A DNA stretch of 64,000 nt, taken from contig JASMDC010000010.1 of assembly GCA_030753015.1 (NCBI GenBank), positions 1 through 64,000 of the forward strand, in the 5' to 3' direction. Origin of the DNA: Candidatus Undinarchaeales archaeon. GTDB lineage: Archaea > SpSt-1190 > JASMDC01. The position numbers and the translations under genes were made by a program. The notes below the pieces were generated by a model. The model saw only the letters and a list, made by a program, of their open reading frames with translations. It searched no databases and was not told where the DNA came from. Positions 10,421 through 50,162 of this stretch are shown here, piece by piece (positions within the stretch are counted from its first letter, which is position 1; each line of letters starts with the position of its first letter).

Positions 10421-11050
10421 ATGCCTCGTCGTCCCCTCGTCAACGTACGACTCGCCGGGTACTGTGGCATAGCAGCGTTCGCGGTCGCCTTCATCTGCAT
10501 CCTGTTCGCCACCAATGCCTCACCCTGGTTCAGCTGGACCGAGACCTGGCTGAGCGACCTGGGGGGGCGCGATGGTGAGGCAGTGACCCTGTTCGGCCCA
10601 TTCACCGCAGCTCACCTGTTCAACAACGGCGTCATGCTCGCCTCACTGCTGGGCATCGGGCTCGTCGGCGGACTTTGGGGATTTCCGGGGCTGGACACAC
10701 CCTGGGGCAAGCGAGGGCTCGTCCTCCTGGTACTGGACATGGTGGCTCTGTTCGGAGTAGGACTGTTCCCCATCTCGCTCGGCGTTAGACACGATTATGC
10801 CGCTGTGCTCTTCTTCGTGCTCATCCCCGCATCGCTGCTCGCACTTGCGAAGGGGCTGAACGATTCGGGTGAGGACGGGCATGCACGGACCATGGGGGTG
10901 CTGGGGGCGATAGCCCTCGTCACCGTGCCCCTCATCGAGCTCCTACCACAGCCCTGGGGCAATAATGCGCTCATCGAGACCATCCCTTCGCTGGCGCTGG
11001 GGATCGCGAGCTTGGTGTCCGGACGGTGGCTGCTCGTCTTGGACGACTAG
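10421..11050 (+). CDS. DUF998-like membrane protein
   Basis: SPWFSWTETWLSDLG, FNNG, GVGLFP..H; about 6 TM helices. Confidence 0.8.
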   Translation: MPRRPLVNVRLAGYCGIAAFAVAFICILFATNASPWFSWTETWLSDLGGRDGEAVTLFGPFTAAHLFNNGVMLASLLGIGLVGGLWGFPGLDTPWGKRGLVLLVLDMVALFGVGLFPISLGVRHDYAAVLFFVLIPASLLALAKGLNDSGEDGHARTMGVLGAIALVTVPLIELLPQPWGNNALIETIPSLALGIASLVSGRWLLVLDD

Positions 11051-13389
11051 GCCGGCTCCAACGCGGACCCCATTATGCGACATAGCACCTGGCCGAAGGA
11101 ACCCTCCTGTTCATCAGCATAGGTCTTCAGCCAAGCGGCGAACCTCTCCTCCAGCACGGTGATGGGTGGCACGATCATCAGCGCCCCGATGAGGGCAGAC
11201 GTCACGCCGATGGAGAGGGTGAGCCCCATGCGGTCCATGCCCGGATTGTCCCCGATGGTCATGGCCATGAATCCCATGATTGTGGTGATTGTAGTTACTG
11301 TAATAGCGCTCCCCACCGAGCGGTAGGTCTGGGCCATGGCCTCGGAGGAGGGCAGCGTCTTTCGCAGCCCGTGATATCGGTGGGCAAGATGTAGGGAGAA
11401 GTCGATGCCAAGGCCCATGATCATGCTGAACACGCTCGACGTCGCCATGGTCATGTGTATGCCCGCGTACCCCATGACGCCCCGCACCCACACCATGCTG
11501 ATCATCATTGGCGCCAGGCACACAAGGGCCAGGGCCGGCGAGCGGTAGATCAGGAACACGATGACCATGACGAAGATGAGCCCCCACATGGTGGTCCGCG
11601 CCATGTCGCCGCCGATGAGCTTGCCGATGATGCGGCCGAACGCAGGGCCGCCGCTGTAAGCAACGGTGACGTGCGAGGGGATGTCCATCTCCTCGACATC
11701 GCGTTCGATGGCGCTCATGAACTTTTCGTTCAAGGTCTGCTCGTTACCTATGCTCGTGCTAACGGACATGAGTAGGATATCGCGCTTCTTGTTGTAGTAG
11801 CGTCCGAGCTTCCCCCGGTCCTCCACAGCCTCGAGGAGCTCTCGCTCGTCGTAGGGGATGCGCTCACGCCCAGGTATGCGCTGATTCTGGAACGCCTCCC
11901 AAGGATCGCCCACGCTGTCCACGTGCTCCTCGCGGGCGATGAACTGGGAGAGCAAGTGGAGCTCCTTGAGGAACTCCCGGTCGACGAGCGAGTCGGGAGC
12001 GGGCGCCACGTCGTTGAGCTGGAACACGATGAAAGCCGACTCGGCACCCCCGAATTCGTTCTTAAAGGAGTCCATGGAGCGGACCACGGAAAGGCTCCTG
12101 GGGGAATCTGCGGACATGTCCGTGAGCGTCTTGACATACTGGGCCCCGTTGGCCATGAACACCGTGAAAACAAGGAGTACGAGCATGGTGGTCGCGGGCC
12201 AGGACTCCACCAGCGTACCCACGAACACGAAGAACCGGTCCAGGGACTGGACCCGGACCACCTCCACGGGCCCCTTGCGGCCTTTCTCGGTGATGACCAG
12301 TAGTGCTACAAGGAGCACCAGCGACGAGAGCATGCTGAAGAATATGCCCAGGGCGAGGACGGTCCCCAGGTCCTGGATGCCGGGCATCCGACCCATCCTC
12401 ATGGCCAGGAAGCCAGCCATGGTGGTTGTGGCGGTGGCCAGGACCGCCATCCCCAGGTCGGACAGGGTCTCCTCCACGGCCTCTTCCACGCTCTTCCCCT
12501 CCTCACGCTCCTCCAGGTATCTGTGGACCACGTGGATACCGTAGTCGATCCCGATGCCGATGAGCATGGCGCCGATCCCCACGGTGATGGTGGAGAGCGG
12601 GATGTCCAGCATCTCCATGAACCCGGCGGTCCAGATGACCGAGAGGATGATTGGGAGCATGGGGATGGCGGCGGTGCTCCCGGAGCGGAAGTAGAGGTAG
12701 AGTGTGATGAAGACTAGGAGGAGGCTGTACCCGATGGAGTCGCGGGCACCGCCCACCAGCACGATCATCATCACGCGCATCATCGATGGTCGGCCCGTGA
12801 TCTCGACGCGGATCCCCAGGGGAGGCCGGGCGAACCGGATGGCGTCCCTGACGCTGTCCTCGAACAGTCCGAGCCGCCGCGCGTCGACGCTCACGGCGCC
12901 GAAACCGAACAAGACGGAACGGGTGTAGGCCTTGTTGTAGAAACGATCCAAAGAGCCCATCTGGTCGTGGAGCGCGATTGATCCCTCTATGGTCGTGGGG
13001 AATGGGCGATGTTTCTGGGTGATGGTCTTTGCGGCAGAGTCCGTCGACGACAGCTCCTTCACGTCCTCCAGCCGCTCGTCAAGCGCCTTCGTGAACGCCA
13101 ACACCCGCGGGTCGCGCATGTCACGCACTGCATCGGGCTCATCAACGGTGTCGTCCAGCTCTAGCAGGAGGATGACCGTGTCCTGTGTCCCGTACTCGTT
13201 GGAGATGAACTGCATGGTCTGGAGCACGTCCAGGTCCTCGGGCATGAACTTTCTCATATCGGTCTCGAGCTTGAGCTTGATGGCGTGGGAGTAGACGATC
13301 CCGGTCGCGATGAGGAACACTGCCACCACGATGTACGGATGACGGTAGATCTGGCGTCCCAGCCATCGCAAGACCTTCTTCGCGACCAT
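11047..13389 (-). CDS. RND/MMPL family transporter (archaeal HAE3-type)
   Basis: two repeats, each with GxGIDxxxH (GIGIDYGIH, GLGIDFSLH); about 12 TM. Confidence 0.92.
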   Translation of the reverse strand: MVAKKVLRWLGRQIYRHPYIVVAVFLIATGIVYSHAIKLKLETDMRKFMPEDLDVLQTMQFISNEYGTQDTVILLLELDDTVDEPDAVRDMRDPRVLAFTKALDERLEDVKELSSTDSAAKTITQKHRPFPTTIEGSIALHDQMGSLDRFYNKAYTRSVLFGFGAVSVDARRLGLFEDSVRDAIRFARPPLGIRVEITGRPSMMRVMMIVLVGGARDSIGYSLLLVFITLYLYFRSGSTAAIPMLPIILSVIWTAGFMEMLDIPLSTITVGIGAMLIGIGIDYGIHVVHRYLEEREEGKSVEEAVEETLSDLGMAVLATATTTMAGFLAMRMGRMPGIQDLGTVLALGIFFSMLSSLVLLVALLVITEKGRKGPVEVVRVQSLDRFFVFVGTLVESWPATTMLVLLVFTVFMANGAQYVKTLTDMSADSPRSLSVVRSMDSFKNEFGGAESAFIVFQLNDVAPAPDSLVDREFLKELHLLSQFIAREEHVDSVGDPWEAFQNQRIPGRERIPYDERELLEAVEDRGKLGRYYNKKRDILLMSVSTSIGNEQTLNEKFMSAIERDVEEMDIPSHVTVAYSGGPAFGRIIGKLIGGDMARTTMWGLIFVMVIVFLIYRSPALALVCLAPMMISMVWVRGVMGYAGIHMTMATSSVFSMIMGLGIDFSLHLAHRYHGLRKTLPSSEAMAQTYRSVGSAITVTTITTIMGFMAMTIGDNPGMDRMGLTLSIGVTSALIGALMIVPPITVLEERFAAWLKTYADEQEGSFGQVLCRIMGSALEPA

Positions 13390-13414
13390 GGTCGGTGACC
13401 GTCCTCGGACGAGA

Positions 13415-15502
13415 CTACTTCTTCTCGACGGTGTCGTTCGGTTTACGCGTCACGTAGTACACGAGGCCACCGACCAAGAGGACGACCGCTGCGATGGGAC
13501 CCAGCTGTGAGCTGAGGGGCGCCTCTTCACCGGCCACTTGCCTGCCACCATCTGTGATGGTGACCTCCTTGGAGTCCTCGAACACGTATACGTTGGAGTC
13601 ACCGATATCCCGGTCGCCCACGGCCCTGATCTCGAAAGTAAGGGCGTATTCCTTGGGTGTGCCGTCGCTCTCGATGCGTCCGTCGAGAATACCTGTCCTC
13701 GATACGCCCGGGGGGATAGTGGAAAGGTAGTCGCTCTTGGTCTCGAACACGAAGGGAACGTCGCCCTCGACGATGGCCTTGATTGACGCGGACTCGGCCT
13801 CTTCGCTGCCGGTGTTCATGACCTCGATGGTCATCTTGAACTCATCGCCAAGCTTCAGCGCCGAGACCTTGCGCCCGGCGACGGTGACCTCGAGGGTGGA
13901 GATGGAGAGCCTGGGCTTCTCGTTGACGATGAGGGTGTAGGTCTGCTGGCCGGTGAGGGCCGCTCCTGCGGTGTCGGTGAACGTCAGGTCAACGGTGACG
14001 AGGTAATCGCCCGGTTTCGTGTCCTCAGGCACGTCGAACCTGAACTGGGCGGAGCTGCTGGTGTCCTTGGCTACGTTGCCCAGCACAGAGCGACGGTTGC
14101 CGCCGAAATCCAGGGCGTCGGAAGTAGCTACGGCCACGACGTTCTTGGCCATCCCCGTGCCCACGTTGTTGATGTCGAGGGAGAGGAGCACGTCGTCGTC
14201 ACCGGGTCGCACCTTCTCAGGGTCCACGGACGTATCGCCCAGGCGGAGCTCGGGCATTCCCTGGACGGAGAGGCCGATGATGGACTCGGCGGAGTTTGCG
14301 GTCCCCAGCGCGTCCTCGTAGGTGAGCGCGGCGGTCAGCTGGTAGGCGCCCTCGGGCGTCTTGGGCGCAGCGTAGACCTGGATGGGAAGTCGTGCCTGGG
14401 CATCGGCGGCCAGCTCCCGGACGAGGTACTGCGACGAGCCCAGCGGGATGACGCCGTCCACGGTCACGGGAAGGTTCACTGAGCCCACCATCTGGGCCGC
14501 GGAGGCCACCATGGCCATGGTGGGATCCGCCATTATCGCTTGGGCTGCACCTGAGCCACCGAAGCCCTGCCCCTGGCTCTGGTACGCGCTCACCCGGGTG
14601 AGCGAGAGGCGCACGTTCTTGGCCTCGGCGCTACCGGCGTTGCGGAGGACGAAGACGAGGTCCTTGGTCTCGCCGGGCGTGAAGGTGTCAAGGCCCTCGA
14701 TCACAGCGAGCTCGACAACCGGCTCGGTCTTGTCGACGTGCAGACCGAGCTGGAGCGTTGGATTGGTCGAACCGCTGTCGTCCTCGATGGTGATGGGGAG
14801 AGTGTAGAAGCCCGATGCACGGGCGCTGGTCTGGAGCACGAGATCGATGTAGGCAAGACGGCCGGGCAGCACGTCGCCGAGGGCGAACACGTCCCCCGTC
14901 CCGCGAAGCGAGAAGAGCGTGGTGTCCTCGGAGCCCTCGGGCGTCGTCGCCACAGTCGCGCGCACGTTCTCGGCGACGCCCTTGCCGGCGTTCCGCATAC
15001 TGATGCGCACCTCGATCGCGGTCCCCGACGAGATCGTGTCCGGGAGGGTGGTGCTGGCGATGACCACGAGCGGATCCGCTTCGATCTCGAGGGTCAGCTC
15101 GGTCTCCTCGCGCAGCTCCTCACAGGTGGGGTGGCAGGTGATGATGTCGAGCTTGTAGGTACCCTCCTGGGCCCCCTCGTCAACGTCGAGGTAGAAGTCC
15201 TTGTAGATGACCGGGCGGCCGACGACATCGCCGATGACCTCGACACTCGGGTGCCCCTCACGAACTGAGAAGGGATACTTGGGATCCACTGCCAGGGTTA
15301 GGTCCTCCAGAGCTTTGTCGCCGCTGAACGTCAGCTTGAGCTTGAGGGTCATGGGCATGCCCGGATTGAGTACGGTCGGATCGGTGGACACCTTTGTCAC
15401 CGAAACGGCACCGTAGTCCTTGCCGGCGGCAGCGAGGCCGAACGGAGCGATGAGTATCGCGCAGAGCACGAGGGTCAGTATCAATAGGTTCTCTCGTTCC
15501 AT
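13415..15502 (-). CDS. COG1361 S-layer-domain/CARDB-repeat protein
   Basis: signal peptide, repeated NxGxxxAxNV Ig-like domains, C-terminal TM; the usual partner of archaeal RND transporters. Confidence 0.88.
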   Translation of the reverse strand: MERENLLILTLVLCAILIAPFGLAAAGKDYGAVSVTKVSTDPTVLNPGMPMTLKLKLTFSGDKALEDLTLAVDPKYPFSVREGHPSVEVIGDVVGRPVIYKDFYLDVDEGAQEGTYKLDIITCHPTCEELREETELTLEIEADPLVVIASTTLPDTISSGTAIEVRISMRNAGKGVAENVRATVATTPEGSEDTTLFSLRGTGDVFALGDVLPGRLAYIDLVLQTSARASGFYTLPITIEDDSGSTNPTLQLGLHVDKTEPVVELAVIEGLDTFTPGETKDLVFVLRNAGSAEAKNVRLSLTRVSAYQSQGQGFGGSGAAQAIMADPTMAMVASAAQMVGSVNLPVTVDGVIPLGSSQYLVRELAADAQARLPIQVYAAPKTPEGAYQLTAALTYEDALGTANSAESIIGLSVQGMPELRLGDTSVDPEKVRPGDDDVLLSLDINNVGTGMAKNVVAVATSDALDFGGNRRSVLGNVAKDTSSSAQFRFDVPEDTKPGDYLVTVDLTFTDTAGAALTGQQTYTLIVNEKPRLSISTLEVTVAGRKVSALKLGDEFKMTIEVMNTGSEEAESASIKAIVEGDVPFVFETKSDYLSTIPPGVSRTGILDGRIESDGTPKEYALTFEIRAVGDRDIGDSNVYVFEDSKEVTITDGGRQVAGEEAPLSSQLGPIAAVVLLVGGLVYYVTRKPNDTVEKK

Positions 15503-41821: not shown

Positions 41822-42025
41822 TCAGGTCCGGAGGGCCAGCTTGATGTCCTTGGCCATAACGGTCTTGCGGCCGCTGTGCCGGGCGATCTGGTTCGCCTGG
41901 TCGGCGACCTCCATGGCATACTCCTCGAGGATCTCTTGCAGGGCCTGAACGCCGCTAACAGCGACGCGCTTGGCGCCAGCGTTCTTCATAAGGCGCGCAA
42001 CGGCAGCGAAAGGCAGTTCTGACAT
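41822..42025 (-). CDS. archaeal histone (HMf-like)
   Basis: MSELPFAAVARLMKNAGAKRV...ARHSGRKTVMAKDIKLA; 67 aa. Confidence 0.96.
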   Translation of the reverse strand: MSELPFAAVARLMKNAGAKRVAVSGVQALQEILEEYAMEVADQANQIARHSGRKTVMAKDIKLALRT

Positions 42026-42140
42026 AATCTCACCGGCTTTCACAAACAGATTCCAATTTATAAGAATTTCCTTTTTTTCGCAAAAAAAGGCCGAATCGTG
42101 CCTCTTTCTCCAGAATACCCGCACAGAACGTCCCCGGGGC

Positions 42141-45100
42141 TCACTGCTGGGGATAACGTCGCCTCTGTTGCTGACCCGGCTGTTGTTGCTGTTGGCCCAT
42201 GCCAGCTTGTTGTTGCTGCTGACCCGGTTGTTGTTGCTGCTGACCCGGTTGTTGTTGCTGCTGACCCGGTTGTTGTTGCTGTTGGCCCATGCCAGCTTGC
42301 TGCTGTTGTTGGGGATAGCGCTGGCCGTACTGCTGCTGCTGGTAGCCTCGCTGGTAGTAGCCGGTCTGGGGGCGTCCCTGCATCCCTGGTTGCTGCTGCT
42401 GCATCCCCGGTTGTTGCTGCATCCCCGGCTTCGGCGCAGCTCCTGCTTGCCCCCCTCCTCCAGCCTGGGCGAGCTTGGCCTGGAACGCGTTAGCCACTCC
42501 CGCCTCGCGCATGTAAGCCATATAGCCGACCACACCAAGTAAGGATCCGAGGAGTACGAACACGACGGAGAACCTGACGACCTTCTGGAGCGTGGAGAGC
42601 TCTACCGTGGCCGGCTTGATGGTGTTAGCGACGATGAAGTCGTTCTGCCGCGCAATCACCTTGTTGATGGTGGCGAGGGCCGTATCGTACTCGCCTTCGA
42701 AGTACTGCTCTTCGGCCTCGTTGATCATCTTCTGGATCTCGAGACGGCCGTCCTCGTCCTCCACCTTCCCGATCCGGCTCTTGGCCTCAGAGAGCTTGTA
42801 CTCAACCTCCTCGACCATTGTCTCGTTCACATCACCTGATGGCTTCTTCGTGGGCTCCGGTGTGGTACTGGCGCCGGGTGAGGCGGACGGGTCCACGCTC
42901 GTATCAGGGGTGGGACTCGGTCCGGATGTGGGTGTGGTGCTGGGCTTGACCGTGGGCTTCGGTGTCGTCGAGGCCGATGGTGTGACGGTGGCATTGGGCT
43001 TGGTCGTTGGTGTTGCGGTCGCATTGGGGGCGACCGTTGCATTGGGCGAGATTGTGGCATTGGGGGCGACCGTTGCATTGGGCGTGAGAGTAGCGTTGGG
43101 CGTGACGGTGGCGTTTGGAACAGGAGTTGGCGTCGCCGATACATCGGGGGCCTCGATCAGTGCCGTGGTGTTGACGCACCCTTCGTTCTCCAGGGTATCG
43201 CGACAGCACACCTTGATCGTCTGGTTGCCTGGTGGGAGGTTCAGGATCCAGGAAACCGATGCGTTGGGCGACTCGATGGACGCGTTGCCCTCGAGCATGG
43301 ACGAGAGGGGCGTAGAGCTGTTGATGGTCACGGCGCACCGCTCCACGGGGAGGTAGGCGTCGGCGACGGACGTAGCGTTGACAGTGAGATTGCCGGACAC
43401 GGCAAGATCAAACGTCGGCGGATCCTGGTCCCGCACGAACACCGTCGTATTGGTGACCGAGTCGTAATCGCTGGAGCAGTTGACCTTCGCGGTGATATTG
43501 CCCGTGTCGGTGATGCTGAAGGAAAGGTAGGCCGAGCCCTGCTTCTTGCCGCTTTCGAGCATGTCCAGCACGGGACCCTTGGTACCGTTCTCGTACACCA
43601 GTCGGCCGGAGCATGATGCTATGTGCTTGCTTTTGTAATCGGCATAGATCATCGCAGTACGGTCGGTGATCGGCTCGATCGGGCGCACGGTGACGTTGAT
43701 GGTACCATTGAGGCCGAGCGCCTGGAACGTGCTGTTGTCGGTGACGTTCCAGCGGCCGCCCTCGTTGATGACCCATGCCCGTGCCGTGATATAGGTCCCT
43801 GCCGTGAGATTGGCCTGGGCGATGGTGAACGTGATGTCGACGAGCCCGCTCTTCCCCGATAGGTCCTCGGTGACGTTCTTGAACTCACCAGTCGCGTTGT
43901 GTTCGAACACGGCGCTCGTAAGAGCGAGGGCGTCACCCGCCTTAACATCGATATCGACGTCCTGGTCGGCCGTGACACTGTCCGGGATGTCGCTGATAGT
44001 GATGTTGGGCGCTCCCGGGTAGCGGAGCAGGGAGATGGTGGAGTTGTTGTTCCCAAGGACGCCCACCAGGAGGTCGCCGTGGCTGCCAAGTGCGATGGAG
44101 GCGATCCGTTCGCCGGGCCACGTACGCGTCGCCAGCTCGTTGAGGTCCTTGTCGAGCAGCACGACCTTGCCACCTTCACCGGGCTTACCGCCACCTGCCA
44201 CGAGCTCGATCTCATCGGAGGAGATCGCACCGGGGATGAGGTCGCCGAATGTGGCGATGGAGAGCGGAGCGATGTCGGTCACGGGGGTGAGAGGGGTACC
44301 CGTGGCTGCGTACTTTGTGATGTCCGTGACGAGCACGTTCTGGTCCTGGATGCCCAGGATGATCTCCTTGAACCCGTAATCGGTCCCGATGGGGCCGTCA
44401 TTGTCGATGATGTCGGCGGCGACGATCCTGCGGATATCGGTCCAACTGGGATCGGTGACCGATTTGATCTCGTCGAAGGCCTGAAGCCCGCGCTGGAGGA
44501 TCACCAGCTTCGAGGTCACTCCGTTGCTCAGGGCCACGACGACCTCCTTGGTTCCGATGGCCTCCTCGTAGAGATTCTTGACATCGAGGTCCGAGACCGT
44601 GGTGTTCTCGTCCCAGGTCGTGACGGGAATGCTGCCGTCGAAGAGCTCGAGGTCCTTGGTGAGGATCTTGAGGAAAGGCCGCTTCTCATCGGCCGCCACA
44701 GGGAGGTAGAATCCCCCGACCAGGATCTCAAGGGTTGTGCTCGAGATCTCGATGTCGGCGACATGGAGGGCGGTCGCGTAGGTCATGCGTCCGTCATGCG
44801 TCCAGTTCAGCTGCTTGACCATGTTGAGCTCACGGTTGAACACGATCACCTGGGATGTGACGTTCGTCGGATCGGTGGTGTTGTAGTTGAAGTTGGCCGT
44901 CACGACGATCTCCTTGAGGTCGTCGCCGTCGAGGTCCACGACCTCCATATCAGTGAACTGGTAGCCCCGTCCTAACAGGTCCCAGTTCATCAGCGACTTG
45001 ACGGTCGTGGAGGGATCGGCCTCGTTAGCGAAGAAGATGAACGCCTTGTCCTTGGTCCCCGCGGGAGCTAATATGTGCCCGGCCATGACGATGGTGTCCG

Positions 45101-45257: not shown

Positions 45258-45390
45258 GTATACATTACCTCCTGCGTAGTATTTATCCTTTACAGTACGA
45301 CTACTTAAGTCTCAATGATTTATAAAGCAGCATTGGATCGTAGGGTTACGCACGGCACCCCCATCCTACGTACGGCCGCTCTACGGACCT

Positions 45391-48300
45391 CTATCCCGCA
45401 ACGGTGACCTCACCGGCCGCACTTTCTGCCGTTATCGCCGGGTTGTAGTAGGCGTAGGCCTTGCTCACCGGGATCTTGGCCTTCACCGGAAAGAGCGACA
45501 TCATCTTGAAGGAGAGGGCGAGCTCCTTATCTCTGGGCAGGTCGTCGATGTACAGTACGATCTTGCGCCCGGCCGTCTCGAACCGCATGATGGTGCCATC
45601 CTCCAAGAGCGTGTCGAGTGAACCGGGATTGGCAGCGAATCCCGTGGGCACAGCGACGTCCACAAGGAGCATACCTGTGGAGGAACCCGAGCCGCGGTAC
45701 GTCACCGACACGTCCACGTCGATGAGGGCGGAGACGGCCACATCGGCCGTGTCATAAGTGACCTGAAGGTCGAGGTCCGGCGTCGGTGCGGCCTCGAGCA
45801 GGGCGGGCTCATGCCAGATACTGACGACCTGGGTGGACACCTCGCCGGAACCGTCGCCCACGAGCGAGACCGTGGCCGTGCCGCTGGGGACCTCAACGGT
45901 CTGGAGCACGTCGAAGTTGTCCTGATTAACATCCAGAGCGGCCACCTCGGTCCCGTCCGCGAGCACCCTGACGCTGAGATCGACCTCCCGGGCTTGTGAG
46001 CGAGCGGCGAGCATGAGTGTCTTGAAGGCCATCACCGTGTCCTGGGTGGAGCCGTACCCGCCGCGGCTGTTGCGCTGCGAGTGTATCCACTTGACGATGC
46101 CGGCGGCCTCGGGACGCTTGAGCTCCATGAGGAGGATGGCAGCGTACGAAGCGGTCTCCACGGCCACGGTCGCGGGCTGGACGTGCAGGTCCTTGCCCTC
46201 GGTCACGGGCGCACCGAACGACGTCCCCTTCTCCCCCACCTGGGAGAGGTCGAGGACCATGTCGGCTGCCCGCTCGGCATCGGGCGAGGCTAGCCTGTTG
46301 AGGGCGAGCCCGGCGATGGAAAGGGCGTACGCGTCGCTCTTCGCGCTGTCGAGTTCGGCCTCCAGATAGGAGCGCGCTTTGTCGAGCACACCAGAGGGTG
46401 CTCGGCCGTAGTCGGAGAGGGCGAGCACGGTGTAGGCCGTGAGGCCGAAGGTGCCGGAGAGGCCGCCGGAGAGGTCCTTATGACAGAGGAACCCGACAGG
46501 TGCCCATGAGCCATCGGCACCCTGGTGGCTCACGATCCAGTCGGCGGTGCGGTCCATCACGCCCTCGTCGATGGTCATGAGCTCGCGGGCACCGCTGAAG
46601 GTCATAAGGACGAAGGCGGTCAGCCACAGGCTCCCCTCGGGATCTGAGTTACCGAAGGCGGAGAATGAGCCGTCAGTTCGCTGGAAGGTCAGCTCCCGTT
46701 GGTACCCCGTCTGCATGAGGAACTCCGACTTGGCGCGGATCTCGGGAGTGAGCTGGTCGCTTTGCTTGAGGTAGCGGAGCATCTCCGTGTTAGGCGCCAT
46801 CCTGATCATGGTCTGCTCGCCGCATCCGGTGGGGAGGGTTAGGAGGTTCTCGACACCGGTGATCGCCTGGGCGGCCAGGCTAGGCGTTACGTGCACGAGC
46901 ACCTTGTCCGAGTCTGGGACGAGATCGACGGGCATGGACACGTCAACGTCGGTGCGCTGGCCGGCCGAGAGCATCGCGTTCTCCACCGACTCGCGACGGG
47001 TGCCCTCGGGATCCACGATGAGGGTCTTTACGACCGCGTCGGCCTTGTTCGGGCCCCTGGCCGTGATGCGCACCTTCCTGGTGCCGACCTTCGTGGGCCG
47101 GATGACGTACGTGACGGACCGGACGCCACTGGGCTCGACCTCCACCTCGGCGTCCGCGCCGGACACCAGGTCGTACCAGTCGCCGCCCTCCAGCGTCACC
47201 TGGACCTTCTGGGGCACACCCAGGTAGTTGTACACCTGGACCTTGACCGGGAACTCCTCGCCGCGGATGACCGCGTATGGGAGGTCGGGATCCGCAAAGA
47301 ACTCCTGGAACACCTTCAGGCTCCCCTCTGCGATGCCGAGACCTGCTGACGACGAGGATACCGCGTGGAGCCTCCATGTGGTGATGGAGTCTGGTACCGA
47401 GAGCGACATGGTGGCCGTTCCGTCGTCTGCGGTCTCCAAGTCAGGCACCCACATCCACGTCTCCGGGAAGAACTGGCGCACTCGCTCGACCTCGGCGAGC
47501 TCCTGGCCGTCGCTATCGTCGGCTGCCTGCGTCTTCTTTTCCATGGGCGCTGCTGCCATCATCCTCTTTGGAACCGCCATGACCGCTTTTTCGACCATGT
47601 CGAATTCCATCGCCTCCTCGAAGAGACCACCGGGCGCCATGCCCCCGCGCATACCGATATCGGCCTCCTGCGTGCGTGGCACCACGAGGTCGTCCGAGGC
47701 GAGAACTATCAGCCCTGCCTCCTCCAGCGTCTCCCACGCGCCCTGCGGGGGTTTGTACGATGGCCCCCACCGATTGATATCGGGCTTCGGATGTGCCTCG
47801 GCGGACGGCTCCATGAACCGCCGCTCCAGCTCGTCGAACACCTGGCGGAGATTGAGGCGACCCTCGCTGAGGGCGAACACCGATTCGTCCACGATGGCGA
47901 ACCCTATCTCGGACCTGCGCTGGGCGTCGAAGGACACAGTGACCGTGTCCCCCGGTGCCGCCTCATCCTTGTCGAATTCAGCGGTGAGCTCTACCGGGAG
48001 CTTCAGCTCAACATCGAAGGGCAGTGTGTCTGCGGCCACTTCGCTATCGGGATTGATGCGATAGGCCACGATCTTGGCCGACGGTGCCATGGTGGGCGTG
48101 ACGGCGAAGGAGATAGCGTTACCGTCGCTCGCACCCGAGAACACCGTGCGCCCTCCGGCTACGACGTCGTAGAATGTCGTGCCCGGGAAGGTGGCGTGGG
48201 CCTCGGCCTCGAACAGCGTTCCGATCCCGATAACGCCTCTGGTCTTCTGGGCAAGATGGATGAACGAGGAGCTTGGCGAGTAGGCCAGTGTGAGGTCGAG

Positions 48301-50043
48301 CGAGGCGGTGGTCCCCTGGGCCGCAGCGGATACCGATCCCTTCTGAGTAGTGTTGGGGGGCGTGTAGGTCACAAGGGCCATACCGTTCTTCGTCTCGACC
48401 GTCCGATCCGTTGATGTCCCCTCGCTCCACATGTCGTCGCTGAAGGCGGTCGACAGGACAACTTCCGCATCCACGGGCACGCCATCGGGCGTTTTGGTGA
48501 TGACCAGGAGGTCAAAGGGCAGCCCGGGCTTGATCGTCGGGCTCTCGGCGATGAGCTGGATGACCAGCGGCGACTCGACGACCTTCAGAAGACGGGATTC
48601 CTTCTCCTCGTGGTCGCCCGTGTCGGTGACGGTGATGTTGAGCATCAGCGAGCCCGCCCCTCCGGCGCCCACGGTCCCTGCAGCGAAACCAGCGGCAGCG
48701 AGATCGAACTCGGTGTTCCCCTCATCATCGAGCTCGGCGGTGTATGTAGCGTACTCCTCCCACACCCCGCGGTACACCGACGCTACGATCTCGGCCGTCC
48801 CCTTCACGGGCTTGCCAAAGAAGTAATTTCCTGACACCGAGCCCTTAACCTTCTCGTCGACGAGCACCCATTCCTTCTCCATGTCGACCTCGATCTTGAA
48901 CTTGGGGAGCACGTACTTCTCCACGCGCACGTCCACCGTCGCCTCGGCGTCGCCCGATGTCGCCGTGACCTTCCAGGTGCCAAGGTTGAGCTCGGTGGCC
49001 AGTGGGAGGTCGAAGGACAAAGAGCCCCAGCCGGAGGACGTGTCCACCTTCTTGAAGACCTTGATGCCCTTCGCGTCCTGGACGCTCACCTCGAGGGGTG
49101 CTGACACGGGGCGAAGCTCGGCATCGAGCACCAGCACGCGGCCGCGGATCGTCTGTCCCGGCTTGTAGATCGGCTTGTCCGTCTCGATGAACAGCAGGCG
49201 TCCGACCTTGATGGAAACGTCGCCGGTCAGGTGGTCCGGGCCGGACTCGATTATGAGTCGGTAACCGCCCTCGGGCACATCAGGGACGGTGAAGGGAGCG
49301 AGCACGTGGCCGTCGGTACCGGTCTTCCCCTCGTAGACCATGGAGGGGGGTTCGTCGTCCTTGTTGAGGAGGAGGAGGGTGATAGGGGTGTCCGGGACAG
49401 GGCCCCCTTTCTCATCTGTGACGGTGACCGTAGCGGCCGCGCTCCCTCCAGCGTAGAGTGTATCAGTGGTGACGAGCATGACCCGGTGGTCGGTGGCAGG
49501 GATGAGCGTCGTGGCGGTCGTACCCTTGATGTCCACGGCATGGGCGGCCAGTTCCGTCGTGTGCTCCTTGAACCGGGCGAGCAGGTCGGTACAGAGCGCG
49601 GTCTGGTCCCGGCCCCAACCGGCCACGACGATCGCGTAACGATTATCGGAGAGCCTGTTCTTGTACGCGCGCACCACGGCCCGCGGCTCTGTACAAGGCC
49701 AGGTTCGACCTGCACAGAAGTCCCACTTGGTGAGCCTGAGCTCTCGGGCGAAGCTGTTGACGGCGGGCCCGCCCACTACGATGAGATGGGCCTCCTGCCG
49801 GCTCCATGGCGTCAACTGGTCATCAGCGGACGAGATGGCGTCGAAGCCTGCGGCACGCAAACCCTTCTCCAGGGCCTTTGCAGCGGTCTCGTCATCAGCG
49901 TGGGCGGATGCGCCCCAGACGACGATCACCGTGTCGTCACCTATTCCCGCGATGGCCTCGTTGACGGACACTGCGGCAAGTCCCTGGCTGCATATCAGTG
50001 CCAAGATCAATAGGAAATGGAACGGTCGTACTCGGGCTCCCAT
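45391..50043 (-). CDS. alpha-2-macroglobulin/thioester protein (TEP) with an N-terminal S-layer-like domain
   Basis: ETDKPIYKPGQT, EKYVLPKF, VRQFFPETWMW, PDSITTW, GCGEQ, DGSFSAFG, WLTAFV, GGYGSTQDT, VAVPTGF, YAYYNP. Confidence 0.95.
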   Translation of the reverse strand: MGARVRPFHFLLILALICSQGLAAVSVNEAIAGIGDDTVIVVWGASAHADDETAAKALEKGLRAAGFDAISSADDQLTPWSRQEAHLIVVGGPAVNSFARELRLTKWDFCAGRTWPCTEPRAVVRAYKNRLSDNRYAIVVAGWGRDQTALCTDLLARFKEHTTELAAHAVDIKGTTATTLIPATDHRVMLVTTDTLYAGGSAAATVTVTDEKGGPVPDTPITLLLLNKDDEPPSMVYEGKTGTDGHVLAPFTVPDVPEGGYRLIIESGPDHLTGDVSIKVGRLLFIETDKPIYKPGQTIRGRVLVLDAELRPVSAPLEVSVQDAKGIKVFKKVDTSSGWGSLSFDLPLATELNLGTWKVTATSGDAEATVDVRVEKYVLPKFKIEVDMEKEWVLVDEKVKGSVSGNYFFGKPVKGTAEIVASVYRGVWEEYATYTAELDDEGNTEFDLAAAGFAAGTVGAGGAGSLMLNITVTDTGDHEEKESRLLKVVESPLVIQLIAESPTIKPGLPFDLLVITKTPDGVPVDAEVVLSTAFSDDMWSEGTSTDRTVETKNGMALVTYTPPNTTQKGSVSAAAQGTTASLDLTLAYSPSSSFIHLAQKTRGVIGIGTLFEAEAHATFPGTTFYDVVAGGRTVFSGASDGNAISFAVTPTMAPSAKIVAYRINPDSEVAADTLPFDVELKLPVELTAEFDKDEAAPGDTVTVSFDAQRRSEIGFAIVDESVFALSEGRLNLRQVFDELERRFMEPSAEAHPKPDINRWGPSYKPPQGAWETLEEAGLIVLASDDLVVPRTQEADIGMRGGMAPGGLFEEAMEFDMVEKAVMAVPKRMMAAAPMEKKTQAADDSDGQELAEVERVRQFFPETWMWVPDLETADDGTATMSLSVPDSITTWRLHAVSSSSAGLGIAEGSLKVFQEFFADPDLPYAVIRGEEFPVKVQVYNYLGVPQKVQVTLEGGDWYDLVSGADAEVEVEPSGVRSVTYVIRPTKVGTRKVRITARGPNKADAVVKTLIVDPEGTRRESVENAMLSAGQRTDVDVSMPVDLVPDSDKVLVHVTPSLAAQAITGVENLLTLPTGCGEQTMIRMAPNTEMLRYLKQSDQLTPEIRAKSEFLMQTGYQRELTFQRTDGSFSAFGNSDPEGSLWLTAFVLMTFSGARELMTIDEGVMDRTADWIVSHQGADGSWAPVGFLCHKDLSGGLSGTFGLTAYTVLALSDYGRAPSGVLDKARSYLEAELDSAKSDAYALSIAGLALNRLASPDAERAADMVLDLSQVGEKGTSFGAPVTEGKDLHVQPATVAVETASYAAILLMELKRPEAAGIVKWIHSQRNSRGGYGSTQDTVMAFKTLMLAARSQAREVDLSVRVLADGTEVAALDVNQDNFDVLQTVEVPSGTATVSLVGDGSGEVSTQVVSIWHEPALLEAAPTPDLDLQVTYDTADVAVSALIDVDVSVTYRGSGSSTGMLLVDVAVPTGFAANPGSLDTLLEDGTIMRFETAGRKIVLYIDDLPRDKELALSFKMMSLFPVKAKIPVSKAYAYYNPAITAESAAGEVTVAG

Positions 50044-50162
50044 ACCAGATTGATAGGCTTGCAGGGCTTAAAAACCGGCGTGTTTTTCTAGGGTTGACAC
50101 CACACGGTCGTTCATAACGGAAAGAAAACGTTTTTATAGAGCCTCTGGGGCTCGGCGTCCTC

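Follow-up and report, generated by a model that had tools for sequence, protein, structure and literature searches.

We analyzed a 64,000-nucleotide stretch of DNA from a Candidatus Undinarchaeales archaeon (contig JASMDC010000010.1, positions 1 to 64,000; hereafter "the window"), the minus strand of which encodes, at 45391..50043, a protein of the alpha-2-macroglobulin/thioester protein (A2M/TEP) family (P0001, 1550 aa plus the stop codon). This protein has the domain order of the animal TEPs, a GCGEQ thioester motif, and a downstream His that aligns with that of CD109, and it carries an additional N-terminal module that resembles part of S-layer proteins. Our preferred reading, which we consider probable but far from certain, is that it works as a secreted, monomer-sized, envelope-tethered, and protease-triggered covalent trap. 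It is an added member of a known family, the relatives being already annotated by NCBI as alpha-2-macroglobulin.

The gene is a single long open frame with an ATG start, recognized from the open reading frame (ORF) list, its translation, and seven Pfam domains of the A2M family, all of which score above their cut-offs (MG2, MG3, MG4, A2M_BRD, A2M, TED_complement, and A2M_recep). The domain order is of the animal type, i.e., a macroglobulin (MG) ring, a bait region, MG7, a CUB domain with an inserted thioester-containing domain (TED), and MG8. Since TED_complement is matched with an E value of 1.4e-63, together with the six other A2M-family domains, and CD109 is matched with an E value of 1.6e-122, the motif and domain observations are far beyond chance. 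Pfam finds none of the bacterial bMG families and neither the anaphylatoxin nor the C345C domain in the protein, and NCBIfam has no family for it.

An initial annotation of this locus, made from the sequence alone, had placed the gene at 45391-49500. The lower end of this range stands, but the upper end does not, as the ORF reaches 50043; the earlier boundary omitted the first ~180 residues, which hold a signal peptide and the extra N-terminal domain. The motifs that it listed are all in place. Specifically, LPTGCGEQTMIR is present in the translation, with GCGEQ at residues 1073-1077 (46813..46827), the codon of Cys1074 at 46822-46824, and that of Gln1077 at 46813-46815. Likewise, PVGFLCHKDLSGG is present, and the codon of His1188, within HKDLSGG, lies at 46480..46482, 114 residues past the Cys. 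The motifs RQFFPETWMW, WLTAFV, and GGYGSTQDT lie in the same minus-strand open frame, and the Met/Ala-rich, bait-like stretch corresponds to residues 793-848 (window positions 47500-47667).

The ring consists of MG1, MG2 (residues 284-374), MG3 (376-451), and MG4 (496-573) and is followed by the bait-region domain (BRD, 617-725), the whole occupying 47794..49488 on the minus strand, where all features of the gene given here lie; together these domains align with CD109 residues 152-636 and are matched by the Pfam families MG2, MG3, MG4, and A2M_BRD. The bait-like region follows at residues 751-850 (47494..47793) and was delimited by its low majority identity and its length variation; within it lies the hypervariable Met/Ala-rich core named above. 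RQFFPETW, from R856, leads into the A2M/MG7 domain (residues 862-951; 47191..47478 for the motif and domain together; Pfam A2M, 95.5 bits). The TED spans residues 1059-1343 (46015..46869; TED_complement, 215.3 bits) and is inserted in the CUB domain, and the C-terminal MG8, or "receptor-binding", domain spans residues 1455-1539 (45427..45681; A2M_recep, 54.1 bits), which form a beta-sandwich in the predicted model.

The pattern of conservation among relatives follows this layout. In an alignment of 20 sequences (A1), C1074, Q1077, and H1188 are invariant (20/20), as are R856, F859, P860, E861, T862, and W863. The bait interval (residues 751-850) has a majority identity of 0.23-0.40, vs 0.6-0.7 in its flanks, with the lowest values (0.23-0.24) in the core at ~793-848, and the length of the wider interval ranges from 68 to 129 aa among the 20 relatives. 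Judged from these sequences, the stretch between the BRD and MG7 is variable in both sequence and length.

The fold was predicted with AlphaFold2 for residues 840-1550, using an 80-row alignment. The model has a mean predicted local distance difference test (pLDDT) score of 83.5 and a predicted template modeling (pTM) score of 0.73, and it places a helical TED between flanking beta strands. In Foldseek comparisons, its template modeling (TM) scores against native forms are 0.78 for CD109, 0.78 for A2M, and 0.77 for A2ML1, followed by 0.72 for C5, 0.70-0.71 for TEP1, and 0.69-0.70 for native C3, and only 0.33-0.36 against activated C3b. The predicted fold is thus native-like. By sequence, the best-matching solved structures are, in order, CD109 (1.6e-122), human A2M, A2ML1, C3, C4, and TEP1, and no bacterial A2M is found among the best 60 of 83 such matches or among the Foldseek matches down to rank 50.

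The position of the His was compared in several ways. In pairwise HMMER alignments, "gflcHkdlsgg" of the window protein is aligned with "grviHselqgg" of CD109 and with "gkvwHkdmqgg" of Anopheles TEP1, so that H1188, in its HxxxxGG context, matches the His of both proteins residue for residue, as had been proposed. The Cys and the His are 114 residues apart in the window protein and likewise in CD109 (ungapped blocks), and a multiple alignment places H1188 with the His of fish A2ML1. In the His column of this alignment, His is found in 12/12 archaeal and 14/14 bacterial rows of the family and in seven of the nine rows that are animal or animal-like, the exceptions being a Ptychodera protein (Asp) and a millipede protein (Ser). 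None of the five rows of another prokaryotic group, with FVSGCGEQS at the thioester, has His there (Thr or Asn instead), and YfhM of Escherichia coli has Tyr, in a weak alignment. The match to C4-B spans the correct range; C3 and C4B were compared by matching ranges only, so the comparison with the C3 His is indirect. A passage of PMC13365339 places the catalytic His of C3 ~100 residues past the thioester.

The initial annotation took this His as a sign of glycan tagging, a reading that the His alone does not support. As described in part of PMC9156758, the His forms an acyl-imidazole that leads to hydroxyl reactivity in C3 and C4B and also in A2ML1, a monomeric protease inhibitor that depends on covalent capture and reacts with both hydroxyls and amines. 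Since the same His serves C3, C4B, and the inhibitor A2ML1, it marks a type of chemistry and not an opsonin function.

With respect to the named systems, the window protein is much closer to the animal TEPs than to the E. coli type, as the initial annotation held. With the C-terminal 711 aa as the query, labeled animal TEPs score 292-354 bits, vs 26 bits over part of the region for YfhM. CD109 (8s3o, 9fx2) is the best solved match and shares the spacing, the HxxxxGG context, the monomer size, and surface tethering, although its identity to the window protein is ~30% and it falls in a separate clade of the tree described below. CD109 is anchored at its C-terminus by glycosylphosphatidylinositol, whereas the S-layer-like module of the window protein is N-terminal. 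The monomeric animal TEPs A2ML1 (7q1y) and TEP1 (4d94, 2pn5) have the same domain order and the His; their identity to the window protein is 24-26% in structural alignments, and both are soluble, secreted proteins, TEP1 being an opsonin. Complement C3 and C4 share the core fold, the thioester, and a downstream catalytic His (for C3, as given in PMC13365339), but contain the anaphylatoxin and C345C domains that the window protein lacks.

YfhM (ECAM) and the Salmonella A2M represent a type that belongs to the same superfamily and shares a CxEQ thioester, a bait region, and envelope tethering with the window protein. However, the domains of YfhM are bMG1, bMG2, bMG3, bMG5, bMG6, bMG10, and CUB_A2MG, with a partial TED_complement match of 33 bits, and its thioester motif is CLEQ, whereas that of the window protein is CGEQ. 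YfhM is a lipoprotein that starts with ...LALAGC, and yfhM adjoins pbpC in E. coli. The window gene has neither feature: a lipobox scan of the protein and a Pfam search for a transglycosylase among 20 neighboring window ORFs were both negative, in agreement with the initial annotation. Its use of lipoproteins to set bacterial A2Ms apart was misleading, however, as a lipobox is found in 35 of 44 archaeal relatives.

These relatives are numerous. Using a word-indexed protein search, an exhaustive HMMER search, and a scan of a species-level genome collection, we found two clusters of equal length to the window protein at 92-93% identity and many proteins of ~1400 aa at 46-51% identity, which cover ~84-90% of its length. 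The latter come from Methanolobus, Methanococcoides, Methanomethylovorans, ANME-2, Methanogaster, and Planctomycetota; those that bear a name are called "alpha-2-macroglobulin family protein", "A-macroglobulin like protein", or "CD109 antigen". The HMMER search returned 12302 representatives at E <= 0.001 and 2809 at E <= 1e-30, and in the genome collection relatives are encoded on at least 562 genomic stretches. All locus counts given here refer to the best 80 of these stretches (41-51% identity), which come from archaea (Methanosarcinales, Methanoperedens, Altiarchaeales, Hadarchaeota, and Micrarchaeota) and bacteria (Planctomycetota, Omnitrophota, Hydrogenedentota, Nitrospirota, and Chloroflexota). 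Because GCGEQ, followed ~113-114 residues later by a His in H....GG, occurs at 80/80 of these loci, the features that had drawn attention to the window protein are family-wide, and its implied special status among prokaryotes is lost, the loci being spread over many archaeal and bacterial phyla.

The closest of these proteins, i.e., those of Methanolobus (e.g., Methanolobus psychrophilus R15, P0030), Methanococcoides, ANME-2, and Planctomycetota, also share the hypervariable bait with the window protein. The Pfam set of the archaeal and bacterial relatives is the same or nearly so, with a minority of the listed matches lacking MG4. The window protein differs from them at the thioester, where it has LPTGCGEQTMIR and they have MPYGCGEQNMI/M. 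Archaeal A2M homologs have been described before (Makarova et al. 2021, PMC8416519); a passage of that paper places the Methanolobus psychrophilus protein near bacterial A2Ms and regards it as probably acquired from bacteria. The placement near the E. coli type, as given there, is to be set against the great distance between the E. coli type and the window protein (26 bits). Besides PMC8416519, our literature search found no paper on His-bearing, animal-type archaeal or bacterial TEPs or on an S-layer-fused one; Budd et al. 2004 may cover part of this ground.

Two further prokaryotic groups, characterized by GCFEQT and by FVSGCGEQS, score 292-377 bits with the C-terminal query. The GCFEQT(S/A)S group (P0149-P0269) is very large and consists of prokaryotic, A2M-like proteins of 1500-1900 aa, of which one member is from Armatimonadota; several begin, as read by eye, like anti-sigma factors or zinc-finger regulators (e.g., MNCHDCESKLLEYADETL). 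The FVSGCGEQS group includes a Thermoplasmatota protein. The genome of the window itself also encodes a 1712-aa TED-like protein (C20:14238-19466, minus strand; L089:5239-10374) with MPTGCFEQTSST, the same animal-type Pfam set, and Glu at the His column, and a 2505-aa TED-like open frame without CxEQ (C95; L003/L112).

To place the window protein among these groups, two IQ-TREE trees were computed from 701 columns of the C-terminal region (rows cut to ~700 aa) under LG+C20 with posterior mean site frequencies (PMSF): a quick search with 65 rows, rooted on YfhM, and a careful search with 43 of 66 rows, from which YfhM and 22 others were dropped, and in which support is given as ultrafast bootstrap/Shimodaira-Hasegawa-like approximate likelihood ratio test (SH-aLRT). 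The rows left out were C3, C4, C5, the tetrameric A2M, a tandem-fused fish "A2M-like" gene model (P0232), and the C95 paralog, which lacks a thioester and is difficult to align; of P0144, only the first 1480 aa were used. The root was not inferred, and several rows have long branches or a deviant composition.

The GCGEQ-His proteins, animal and prokaryotic alike, group together and are separated from the GCFEQT and FVSGCGEQS proteins (support of 99 in the quick search; outgroup split of 100/99 in the careful one). Within it, the animal rows form one clade (100/100), which is joined by an unlabeled, intronless metagenome protein (93/82) and then by Chloroflexota-type bacterial proteins (95/97), the whole clade having a support of 100/100. 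The window protein and its twin (100/100; stem of 0.72-0.75 changes per site) join Altiarchaeales, Methanoperedens, and Methanosarcinales (91/80), and this set then joins a clade of Planctomycetota, Hydrogenedentota, Nitrospirota, Omnitrophota, and Hadarchaeota (94/90). Therefore, the kinship to metazoan TEPs that had been claimed stands as far as the common GCGEQ-His group is concerned but not beyond it: the window protein lies in the sister clade, and the nearest prokaryotic relatives of the animal TEPs are the Chloroflexota-type bacterial proteins. The Trichoplax CD109-like and the Chloroflexota-type proteins have essentially the domain set of the window protein, both without MG4 by Pfam. 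The special relevance to the origin of complement that had been suggested falls with the same grouping; since the window protein is outside the animal-holding clade, it bears on that origin only as one member of the sister clade. If the root lies outside the GCGEQ-His group, the animal proteins are nested, in these trees, among the prokaryotic ones.

What sets the window protein apart within the family is its N-terminus. Residues 1-24 form a signal peptide (MGARVRPFHFLLILALICSQGLAA; 49972..50043) with a basic n-region, a hydrophobic core, and G-L-A, after which we infer cleavage. The S-layer-like module follows at residues ~25-185 (49489..49971), includes the motif VVGGPAVN, and was recognized from a sub-cut-off match to Pfam S_layer_C and from paralogs found by tblastn in the same genome. 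These are a 564-aa open frame on C64 (E 1.8e-24; S_layer_C, 38.8 bits), a 955-aa open frame on C25 (E 4e-14; 67.1 bits), and an 816-aa open frame with a vWA domain on C35 (E 2e-5; 25.5 bits), and all three are above the S_layer_C cut-off. An alignment of the modules (A3) has an invariant D, GGP, N, G, and T, and related modules end ~725-930-aa proteins of other archaea, which have D...(I/L)VGGPxxN...AG...T in common with the window module. The 955-aa protein (C25:41619-44483, minus strand; L086), probably the main S-layer protein of the genome, has an internal signal-peptide-like stretch and an S_layer_C match (profile 2-173) that is divided between its two ends (residues 75-920); a Cys pair, KWDFC...LPC, is common to it and the N-terminal module of the window protein. 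An ESM Atlas look-up of the module gave scores at chance level (0.75-0.81) and was not used as evidence.

The ~1400-aa relatives align with only ~88% of the window protein, and within the family the module, of ~160 aa, is otherwise found only in the 92-93% identical twins. Since 65-79% of the A1 rows are gapped over residues 26-150 (45% at 151-175), most relatives lack the N-terminal region. A lipobox-like ...SGC after a hydrophobic stretch is present instead in the 35 of 44 archaeal relatives mentioned above, in the one Altiarchaeales locus as well, and in four of 35 bacterial relatives, and these sequences suggest that the archaeal relatives that carry it are archaeal lipoproteins. In precomputed Pfam lists, many bacterial relatives have extra N-terminal domains of the LamG/Laminin_G_3 type instead. 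Envelope tethering looks like a family theme that is solved differently in the window protein, where the N-terminal module most likely holds the protein in or on the archaeal surface layer.

The motifs, the domain architecture, the native-like predicted fold, the place in the family, and the homology of the N-terminal module are shown by the data above; in the mechanism that we propose, thioester formation, bait cleavage, the role of the His, S-layer binding, and protease inhibition as the purpose are all inferred. In the resting state, the Cys1074-Gln1077 thioester would be buried. Cleavage of the bait (~793-848) by a foreign protease would lead to a rearrangement that exposes the thioester, whereupon His1188 would attack it to give an acyl-imidazole. 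The latter would acylate whichever amine or hydroxyl is closest, in the normal case one of the attacking protease; the protease would then be covalently attached to the envelope and sterically impeded, with the S-layer module playing the part that the lipid anchor has in most archaeal relatives and in YfhM. By analogy, such a logic would match that of the monomeric A2ML1 and of the tethered CD109 and YfhM.

Several observations weigh against this trap or against parts of it. The S_layer_C (PF05124) match of the N-terminal module reaches 19.4 bits (E 8.5e-4), under the cut-off of 23.9. In all three paralogs, the module is C-terminal and not N-terminal as in the window protein, so that an S-layer-binding role is here an extrapolation. 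The thioester loop is poorly modeled (pLDDT of ~63-64 at model residues 221-240), no protease, partner, or defense gene is conserved beside the gene at the 80 loci, and PADLOC recognizes no defense system in the window protein or in six of its neighbors. Finally, insect TEPs with the same fold are opsonins and not inhibitors, as stated in part of PMC9156758, and the fold therefore does not decide the function.

One alternative is complement-like tagging, the view of the initial annotation, in which the thioester, activated by proteolysis, would esterify glycan hydroxyls on foreign cells, viruses, or particles. Such a role would fit the HxxxxGG context of His1188, which is that of the hydroxyl-reactive C3, C4B, and A2ML1 in the account of PMC9156758, and the presence of TEP1 and CD109 among the closest solved relatives. 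However, a plain protease inhibitor, A2ML1, has the same His according to that account, no reader of the tag is evident and no partner gene is conserved at the 80 loci, the protein has no C345C or anaphylatoxin domain and no defense-system match, and it is apparently tethered to its own envelope; we therefore regard tagging as unlikely. The combination of an S-layer-like N-terminal tether with a hydroxyl-competent thioester could also serve a covalent adhesin, which would bond the archaeon to surfaces bearing hydroxyls or amines, such as particles, partner cells, or polysaccharide. The downstream neighbor, P0002, is a large surface protein as well, and the organism occurs in marine/seawater metagenomes of 11 studies, both of which would suit an adhesin. 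Yet the complete MG ring and bait, needed for protease triggering and not for simple adhesion, are retained, P0002 is not a neighbor in other lineages, and we know of no thioester adhesin of this architecture, which makes adhesion an improbable main function. Altogether, we continue to favor the covalent trap.

The assembly (3.85 Mb, 117 contigs, 98.9% complete) has a contamination of 5.01%, and no match of the window gene's type is found in a genome of the same genus (G001, 99% complete), so that a contaminant contig, or a decaying, non-functional gene in a metagenome-assembled genome, had to be considered. Either is very unlikely: the gene has 1550 open codons with every family-invariant residue intact, its GC content (0.635-0.653) is the same as that of the remaining window, an archaeal histone gene lies adjacent to it, and paralogs of its N-terminal module occur on three other contigs of the genome and in G001. 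Furthermore, other studies yielded identical copies of the gene sequence, in contigs of two marine metagenome runs, a contig of 6655 nt covers the gene together with P0002, and copies at 92-93% identity occur in other assemblies. As shown by the identical contigs, the gene is real, and its archaeal nature is supported by the adjacent histone gene, by the aEF-2 of the genome (1093 bits), and by the N-terminal module, which also occurs in the S-layer protein of this genome. One metatranscriptome library contains two short contigs that match the interior of the gene exactly; they give neither strand nor level and could derive from DNA carry-over, and are thus no proof of transcription.

The aEF-2 is 96% identical to that of one metagenomic twin and <=64% identical to anything else, and the lineage is therefore a poorly sampled archaeal one. 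One co-member of the 90% cluster of the window protein is labeled "Methanopyri archaeon" by NCBI, a label that we did not rely on, and mcrA was not found in the 98.9% complete genome. Like G001, 15 genomes of the same class have no match of the window gene's type; G001 does have proteins with the S-layer and vWA modules, as well as orthologs of both other TED-like proteins. The genome is an outlier in size within its class, with 3.85 Mb, and 3.6 Mb for its congener, vs 0.6-1.2 Mb in the 15 other genomes.

Upstream of the window gene, 24-32 nt before the ATG, lies a TATA-like TTTTTAAG (50067..50075, minus strand; read by eye), a possible archaeal promoter element that would imply a short or absent leader. 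Downstream, P0002 (42141..45257, minus strand; 1038 aa) was recognized as a surface protein from its sequence features, namely a signal peptide, a linker of Pro and Thr in which N-x-S/T sequons are frequent, a single transmembrane helix, and a cytoplasmic tail that is long and rich in Gln (PGQQQQ repeat). Its N-terminal half is a candidate beta-propeller-like domain with only a weak CarG-like match, weak paralogs occur on contigs C25, C43, C62, and C22, and its own TATA-like TTTATAAAT, near 45320, and a GGAGG precede it. P0002 was considered as a functional partner and set aside, having its own TATA-like element and not being a neighbor at any of the 80 other loci. Across these loci and the window, synteny is seen only within Methanolobus, Methanococcoides, and close kin, and no conserved gene is common to the window; the assumption of an operon partner such as pbpC was therefore abandoned.

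The adjoining archaeal histone-fold ORF (41822-42538, minus strand) has 238 aa from a TTG, of which only residues 174-237 form the fold, and it either starts much further downstream or has a long N-terminal extension. Another envelope-related pair, at 11047-15502 (minus strand), consists of an MMPL/RND-type transporter (780 aa) beside a 695-aa CARDB/NPCBM_assoc surface protein. PADLOC has no family for the window protein or six of its neighbors and gives only generic helicase-domain matches for the seventh, a helicase, and neither Rfam nor a tRNA scan gave any match in the window.

Taken alone, the gene is of modest significance: a known family gains a deep-branching marine archaeon, and the replacement of the lipid anchor by an S-layer-like module would represent a new mode of tethering. 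Of wider interest is the large prokaryotic radiation to which the gene belongs, which combines GCGEQ and the catalytic His with the full animal-type architecture of the TEPs. The hypothesis that bacteria acquired A2M from animals, still repeated in reviews (in passages of PMC13069473 and PMC9156758), rested on the very different E. coli type. We raise, as a tentative and rather doubtful proposal, that the clade of the window protein and its Chloroflexota-type sister clade represent the prokaryotic stock of the animal TEPs and C3, with the window protein as an S-layer-built, cell-autonomous, complement-like envelope defense. If this is true, the idea of bacteria taking A2M from animals would be reversed, and His-assisted, hydroxyl-competent thioester chemistry, along with the full animal-type architecture, would predate animals.

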